Position numbers and translations under genes: made by a program | Notes under the pieces: model-generated | Database searches by the model: none | The model's input: the letters and a program-made list of their open reading frames with translations, nothing else | Told to the model about the DNA's origin: nothing | Part shown: positions 47,484 to 47,671 of the stretch, piece by piece | Layout: each line of letters starts with the position of its first letter | How positions within the stretch are numbered: position 1 is the first letter of the stretch | Source of the DNA: Mobula birostris | Lineage: Eukaryota | Assembly (NCBI RefSeq): GCF_030028105.1 | Contig: NC_092387.1 | Span: forward strand, 19,353,590-19,417,589 | DNA length: 64,000 nt | Direction of reading: 5' to 3'

Positions 47484-47671
47484 CTGGGCTCCGGAGCCGT
47501 ATCTCACTCGCTTCCCCTTTGCTTCTTGGGCCAGGGCGACTTCCAGCATCCTCCGGCTCAGCAGGCTCCCAATAGTCTTAGTGTCTTTGGAAGAGGTGAG
47601 AGGGAGTAGCGCCGGAGTATCGTCATATCCATCTGGATAATCTGACAGGCTCTTCTTTCCCATAAAGTGTC
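47484..47671 (-). CDS. NMB: NMB copy C, coding exon 2
   Basis: GHFMGKKSLSDYPDGYDDTPALLPLTSSKDTKTIGSLLSRRMLEVALAQEAKGKRVRYGSGAQ, with the same splice sites as copy B. Confidence 0.93.

Follow-up and report, generated by a model that had tools for sequence, protein, structure and literature searches.

A pair of basic sites in the neuromedin B precursors of Mobula birostris, probably inherited and lost in two tandem copies

Mobula birostris carries six tandem copies of the neuromedin B (NMB) gene, and three of them (A, B and C) fall wholly or partly in the window, by which we mean the whole 64,000-nucleotide stretch of contig NC_092387.1 analyzed here. In the C-terminal extension of copy C an 11-residue segment is bracketed by Arg-Arg (RR) and Gly-Lys-Arg (GKR), and the original prediction described this as an amidated peptide cassette specific to that paralogue. 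We report that copy Z and each of the three distinct M. hypostoma proteins also carry RR together with GKR. The probable explanation is that a loosely conserved processing region has RR...G-K-R as its inherited state, that copies A and B lost the sites under relaxed constraint, and that any 11-mer amide would be a by-product and not a selected hormone. The cassette by itself matters little: its two basic sites are, on this explanation, inherited and have gone from two young duplicates. Two things raise its interest. A G-[K/R]-R motif at this position appears to be an old chondrichthyan trait, which could be tested by mass spectrometry in the laboratory catshark, and another copy of the array, D, is predicted to encode a peptide with an end like that of the phyllolitorins of frog skin.

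Copy C and its transcript

The features of copy C, all on the minus strand, are as follows.

49595..49601, minus strand: TATA box, with a counterpart upstream of all six copies
49325..49487, minus strand: coding part of exon 1, with the signal peptide, the N-terminal extension and the start of the NMB decapeptide (from 49343)
47484..47671, minus strand: exon 2, with the end of NMB, the GKK amidation signal (47660-47652) and the C-terminal extension
41143..41199, minus strand: coding part of exon 3 and stop
47550..47555, minus strand: R94-R95 (RR), found in 8/8 batoid species and lying within a predicted helix
47517..47549, minus strand: candidate 11-mer MLEVALAQEAK, residues 96-106
47508..47516, minus strand: G107-K108-R109, putative site of cleavage and amidation; G-[K/R]-R found in 10/20 chondrichthyan species
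47499..47513, minus strand: K108-x-x-R111 followed by Y112, a rival cleavage register; 15/20 species

The three exons of copy C all have canonical splice sites, a TATA box precedes the gene, and the spliced product of 135 residues is identical to a database record (P0007, neuromedin-B-like, Mobula birostris). The gene is an ordinary NMB-family member: like other vertebrate NMB precursors, it has a signal peptide, an extension at the N terminus, the NMB decapeptide, GKK and a match to the Pfam Bombesin family (PF02044; residues 49-62, E 9.5e-09). The ray differs from them in having six tandem copies and in carrying G-[K/R]-R in the extension, where glycine followed by a dibasic pair occurs in 0/107 of the bony-vertebrate precursors fetched (mostly related teleosts, and not independent of one another). 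The NMB decapeptide, with its His-Phe-Met end and the GKK after it, is the same in copies C, B, A and Z, and the NMB block is invariant across 41 aligned precursors; a Pfam search of these 41 at E up to 1 found no second peptide family. Among look-alikes of residues 62-135 in the ESM Atlas, spexin (0.88) and galanin (0.87) both scored below the 0.9 level at which we would have taken them as leads.

When the minus strand was read again, the positions first given for RR, the 11-mer and GKR in copy C, and for RK, QR and GNR in copy B, all proved correct. A sequence check places a dibasic site before the 11-mer and a Gly-dibasic site after it; VRY directly follows GKR, and TK stands at 47582-47577 (minus strand). 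In all six copies an in-frame upstream ATG (49580-49488, minus strand) would lengthen the N terminus by a basic stretch, and the Rhincodon record begins at a Met in a similar upstream position.

One of four runs, whose source species are coded, contains a spliced transcript of a C-type gene, with exon 1 joined to exon 2; none of the runs listed in the RNA search is on record as RNA. A contig from run X1 equals copy C over 49324-49524 with 0 differences in 201 letters and runs on into exon-2 letters, while the other copies differ from it over these letters by 6 or more. This spliced contig, found in 1/4 runs at a depth of 3.3, ends before the cassette. A contig from run X2 covers copy C exon 2 together with intron, unspliced and with 7 differences in 274, and is uninformative on processing. 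Matches of the four runs to 40000-50000 of the window were mostly repeats.

Basic sites across the array and among relatives

Exon 2 and exon 1, used separately as queries against the ray's genome, each matched 6 of 6 candidates, all within about 150 kb of one contig. In the order of transcription the copies are D, C, B, A, Z and Y, with D, Z and Y outside the window. A genome search with the Pfam Bombesin family returned 2 exon-2 matches only, a figure that neither counts copies nor shows GRP, because the intron splits the peptide. Multiple NMB-like proteins of Mobula and Hypanus are already in databases. The features of copies B and A are as follows.

24747..24909, minus strand: coding part of copy B exon 1
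22875..23062, minus strand: copy B exon 2, with RK (22973-22968), QR (22946-22941) and GNR (22907-22899), derived states common to copy A
17044..17100, minus strand: coding part of copy B exon 3 and stop
558..720, minus strand: coding part of copy A exon 1; exons 2-3 lie to the left of the window, and the protein is that of copy B

The proteins of copies A and B are both identical to P0011, and that of copy Z to P0009. RR and GKR stand together in copies C and Z; copy Y has QR and GKR; copies A and B have QR and GNR plus RK; and copy D has RR, with a stop at the R109 position. The proposal that the paralogues share NMB while releasing different co-peptides therefore survives in part: the decapeptide is common and the basic sites of the extension do differ, but the novelty claimed for copy C does not hold, since its sites are shared with relatives. 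Copies A and B differ at 4/1684 positions of intron 1 and at 0/188 in exon 2, and the pair arose either by very recent duplication or as a duplicate made in assembly.

A comparison of the window with itself aligned 1-21701 with 24190-45855, a 24-kb tandem A/B unit of 96-97% identical blocks with indels (99.8% in intron 1). A GC-rich degenerate tandem repeat (66 bp and related offsets) lies upstream of both A and B (3901-4665 and 28090-28854); the same self-comparison found no matching GC-rich block upstream of copy C.

Which state is ancestral lay beyond the window on which the original prediction was based, as it had itself said, and an alignment of 20 chondrichthyan species now polarizes the changes (every species retrieved, one sequence for each, excluding further paralogues and two records that were partial or fused; the species tree used for Fitch parsimony comes from general knowledge). 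A basic residue at 95 is present in 20/20 species, and RR at 94-95 in eight, all of them batoids. G107 occurs in 17/20 species and a dibasic pair at 108-109 in 13/20; the two coincide in both Mobula, the chimaera and 7/11 sharks (chimaera and shark records P0022, P0131, P0004, P0005, P0015, P0016, P0017 and P0019). K/R108-x-x-R111 is found before Tyr in 15 of the 20. Elsewhere, stingrays have E-K-R, two skates G-R-L, Narcine G-R-Q and Rhinoraja R-R-R, while in four species of carpet shark the whole basic cluster is absent. In Pristiophorus and Heterodontus, RK precedes the 11-mer too.

A lack of conservation of RR and GKR in related species had been named as evidence against the cassette. We find RR in every batoid sampled and G-[K/R]-R in the chimaera and most of the sharks, and this conservation favors a real C-terminal site. 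The two are not conserved jointly: RR occurs with glycine plus a dibasic pair in 2/20 species, both Mobula, or in 4/20 if RK is counted. The 11-mer is the mere overlap of two separately inherited features.

The Fitch root state is true for G107 and for the dibasic pair at 108-109, with five component losses in other lineages (glycine twice, the dibasic pair three times). Scored as a single character, glycine plus dibasic takes 3 changes and could alternatively have been lost in batoids and regained in Mobula; scored by component, no regain is needed. Under either reading copy C appears to hold the ancestral Mobula state and copies A and B the derived one, and the alignment marks G-[K/R]-R in the pro-NMB extension as a putatively old chondrichthyan trait.

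Processing of the C-terminal extension

In the reading that we prefer, NMB-amide, the presumed target of selection, would be produced once the signal peptide is removed, the precursor is cleaved at GKK and at the arginine preceding NMB, and the peptide is amidated. A further cleavage of the extension would fall in the basic cluster K108-R111; if it follows R109, G107 would become available for amidation, and if it follows R111, no amide would result. RR is probably cut inefficiently, because it lies in a predicted helix that is conserved by bony vertebrates lacking such sites. An 11-mer amide, if made at all, would come from copies C and Z as a by-product and not as a selected paralogue-specific hormone, and copies A and B likely lost RR and GKR under relaxed constraint after tandem duplication. 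On this basis we consider amidation at G107 in some form a serious prospect that falls somewhat short of even, release of the 11-mer amide itself unlikely, and a signaling role for it very improbable. Prediction of the release is weak because two sites are needed and precision per site is about 35%, the positive predictive power reported for motif-only cleavage prediction in pig prohormones (PMC3499383).

The main challenge to the by-product reading is that chondrichthyan pro-NMB may release a second, functional amide ending at G107, which in sharks and the chimaera would be a long form, spanning about 45 residues between GKK and G-[K/R]-R, and in Mobula copies C and Z could be trimmed at RR. 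We regard this as unlikely. The motif is kept from chimaera to rays, in half of the species and at the inferred root, with K-R and R-R versions both occurring, and it is absent from the bony precursors, which suggests selection and counts against a by-product. There are precedents: amidated peptides from G-K-R sites have been found in brain peptidomics, where K-R is reported to flank observed neuropeptides more often than any other motif, with G-K/R after amidated ones (PMC4857386), and C-terminal-extension peptides of another bombesin-family precursor, pro-GRP, are reported to be bioactive (PMC7279011, citing Patel 2012). The pro-GRP peptides are, however, non-amidated and come from the GRP paralogue, and we liken them to the present case by description, not by sequence. 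The five component losses argue that the amide is dispensable. The residue before G107 varies (K, E or D) and the chondrichthyan spacer (residues 62-93) has a conservation of 0.38-0.57, unlike the fixed C-termini of receptor-bound amides. Finally, the K/R-x-x-R register needs fewer changes than glycine plus dibasic (2 Fitch changes vs 3) and survives in skates and Narcine, where residue 109 is non-basic; cleavage there would yield no amide.

The extension could instead remain uncut at these sites, serving as a helical segment for sorting or storage that is secreted whole or degraded, with the basic residues as surface features; we think this rather improbable. AlphaFold predicts a helix at 87-111 that spans both RR and GKR, but the model is weak (mean pLDDT 59, pTM 0.24, helix blocks 49-72), and a hydrophobic-moment scan, with its peak at 80 degrees and not at 100, lends no separate backing to an amphipathic helix. 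Conservation of the 11-mer segment is similar in 17 chondrichthyans (0.69, above the spacer) and in 19 bony vertebrates that lack the sites (0.61), KR or RR occurs in only 12/107 bony-vertebrate extensions, and the carpet sharks do without the cluster, all of which would fit an uncut extension. Valine after the cut, as in copy C, is reportedly penalized, an argument on which we do not rely. In fungal Kex2, valine is over-represented after the cut at cleaved sites, and cleavage is governed by accessibility (PMC2515848); the latter would allow a helical segment to escape, while the prominence of K-R at the flanks of observed neuropeptides speaks against escape.

Differences between copies C and B bear on whether the by-product reading is sufficient. 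There are 10 amino-acid differences in exon 2 and 11 over the whole precursor, and a count upheld the original statement that three of the ten form or abolish a dibasic pair. We compared this with a null of random mutation held to 10 amino-acid changes and run 20,000 times under each of 6 settings: at least 3 dibasic changes arose in 0.8-4.5% of runs. The result is suggestive, in a test chosen post hoc, and counts against the by-product reading. R94Q is CGG to CAG at a CpG and is common to Y, A and B, and the RK of copy B arises amid five base differences in seven nucleotides (codons 84-86). Residues 30-61 show 0 amino-acid changes. Divergence of the extension is near-neutral (pN 0.088, pS 0.115, intron 1 0.059, with no significant difference), in tests of low power because exon 2 is short. 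RK is reportedly the least-used dibasic site. That the copies were selected for different co-peptides, with A and B switching sites by losing RR and KR and gaining RK, is therefore doubtful to a still greater degree: an unchanged NMB in A and B and the number of dibasic changes favor it, but the count is post hoc and includes a shared CpG transition, RK sits within a cluster of base differences and is little used, pN is not above pS, and copy B retains R109 and R111, where it may still be cut.

Copies D and Y

Two of the copies outside the window depart from the others in the N-terminal extension, and one of them in the core peptide.

L023:9945-9777 and 7966-7788 (G000:C22:19437534-19435377), minus strand: exons 1 and 2 of copy D
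L016:3469-3310 and 1613-1426, minus strand: exons 1 and 2 of copy Y

Copy D has an intact TATA box, signal peptide and GKK, and its signal peptide is identical to that of copy C. A two-base change, CAC to TCC, turns the His of His-Phe-Met into Ser, and the predicted product would end in Gly-Ser-Phe-Met-amide, matching the C-terminus by which the phyllolitorin group is stated to be defined (Gly-Ser-Phe/Leu-Met-amide; PMC6152109). Over the last eight residues it would differ from phyllolitorin only in Thr for Val, as does [Thr5,Leu8]-phyllolitorin (PMC10674911 Table 2). Phyllolitorins are nonapeptides with a pyroglutamate N-terminus, whereas copy D has Ala, not Gln, before Leu-Trp (PMC10674911), and copy D arose independently in the ray array, its intron 1 differing from that of copy C by 7.8%. 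We therefore describe the predicted peptide as phyllolitorin-like and do not class it as a phyllolitorin. A residue other than His at this position occurs in 0/134 proteins (NMB-like top matches, with no phyllomedusid peptides included). Phyllolitorin is listed as binding BB1 at 47 nM, vs 7 nM for litorin (PMC10674911 Table 2), and one account gives its mammalian counterpart as unfound as of 2017 (PMC6152109).

The N-terminal extension is otherwise well conserved (residues 30-48: 0.87 in chondrichthyans, 0.92 in bony vertebrates). Over residues 30-50, compared in frame with copy C, copy D differs at 15 and copy Y at 17 of 20 codons, and their pN in the extension (0.48 and 0.50) far exceeds intron divergence (0.078 and 0.054; p below 1e-11). 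pN is also above pS against copy C (p 0.03), while D against Z and B is not significant (p 0.07 and 0.23). Positive selection fits this pattern better than decay, with the caveat that the codon comparison of exon 1 used hand-set in-frame gaps.

In exon 2 of copy D the peptide is followed by two stops; the first leaves 107 residues and lies 24 bases before the last exon junction. Under the 50-base rule for nonsense-mediated decay, this is close enough to the junction that the transcript could escape. Silent sites of this exon have also changed fast (pS 0.23, pN 0.23), which may point to decay or to an older exon, and its donor is weaker; both count against function. We found no protein record for D or Y, and a search with D exon 1 (proteins of 99-2000 residues) returned the canonical cluster only, from 1/4 candidates, which is weak evidence that D/Y-type proteins are unannotated. 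Contigs of the four runs aligned to copy C exon 1 included no D/Y-type contig, which is no evidence either way. In copy Y the signal peptide has lost 3 codons and the core peptide is not preceded by arginine; the frame of 134 residues is open, and no identical record occurs among the proteins compared. Copy Y joins a D-type exon 1 to a C/B-type exon 2, and pairwise distances between copies shift along the gene, as expected from unequal crossing-over or conversion. A 1.1-kb repeat insertion lies within the 3' UTR of copy Y (G000:C22:19292633-19291509, L015).

Frog peptides are placed in the NMB/bombesin clade as having diversified in frogs (PMC8233351), and diversification of NMB/bombesin is described for certain lineages, frogs in particular (PMC8233351; PMC12962067). 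It is conceivable, at perhaps the strength of a minority view, that the mobulid array is a second, independent radiation of the frog-skin kind. Positive selection would have rewritten the extension of D and Y; copy D would be expressed as the first phyllolitorin-type peptide outside frogs, with a changed receptor preference and a possible skin or defensive role; and an ancient second amidation site of chondrichthyans would give an undescribed amidated co-peptide, kept in C and Z and dropped in A and B. If true, a ray paralogue with a convergent His-to-Ser change would be a natural replicate of neuropeptide re-tooling after duplication. A literature search with little reach into subscription journals found no paper on a ray NMB array, a chondrichthyan amidation site of this kind or a phyllolitorin-like peptide in fish.

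NMB duplication may be recurrent in myliobatiform rays. Hypanus sabinus has two NMB-like proteins (P0012 and P0013), and Hemitrygon showed one.
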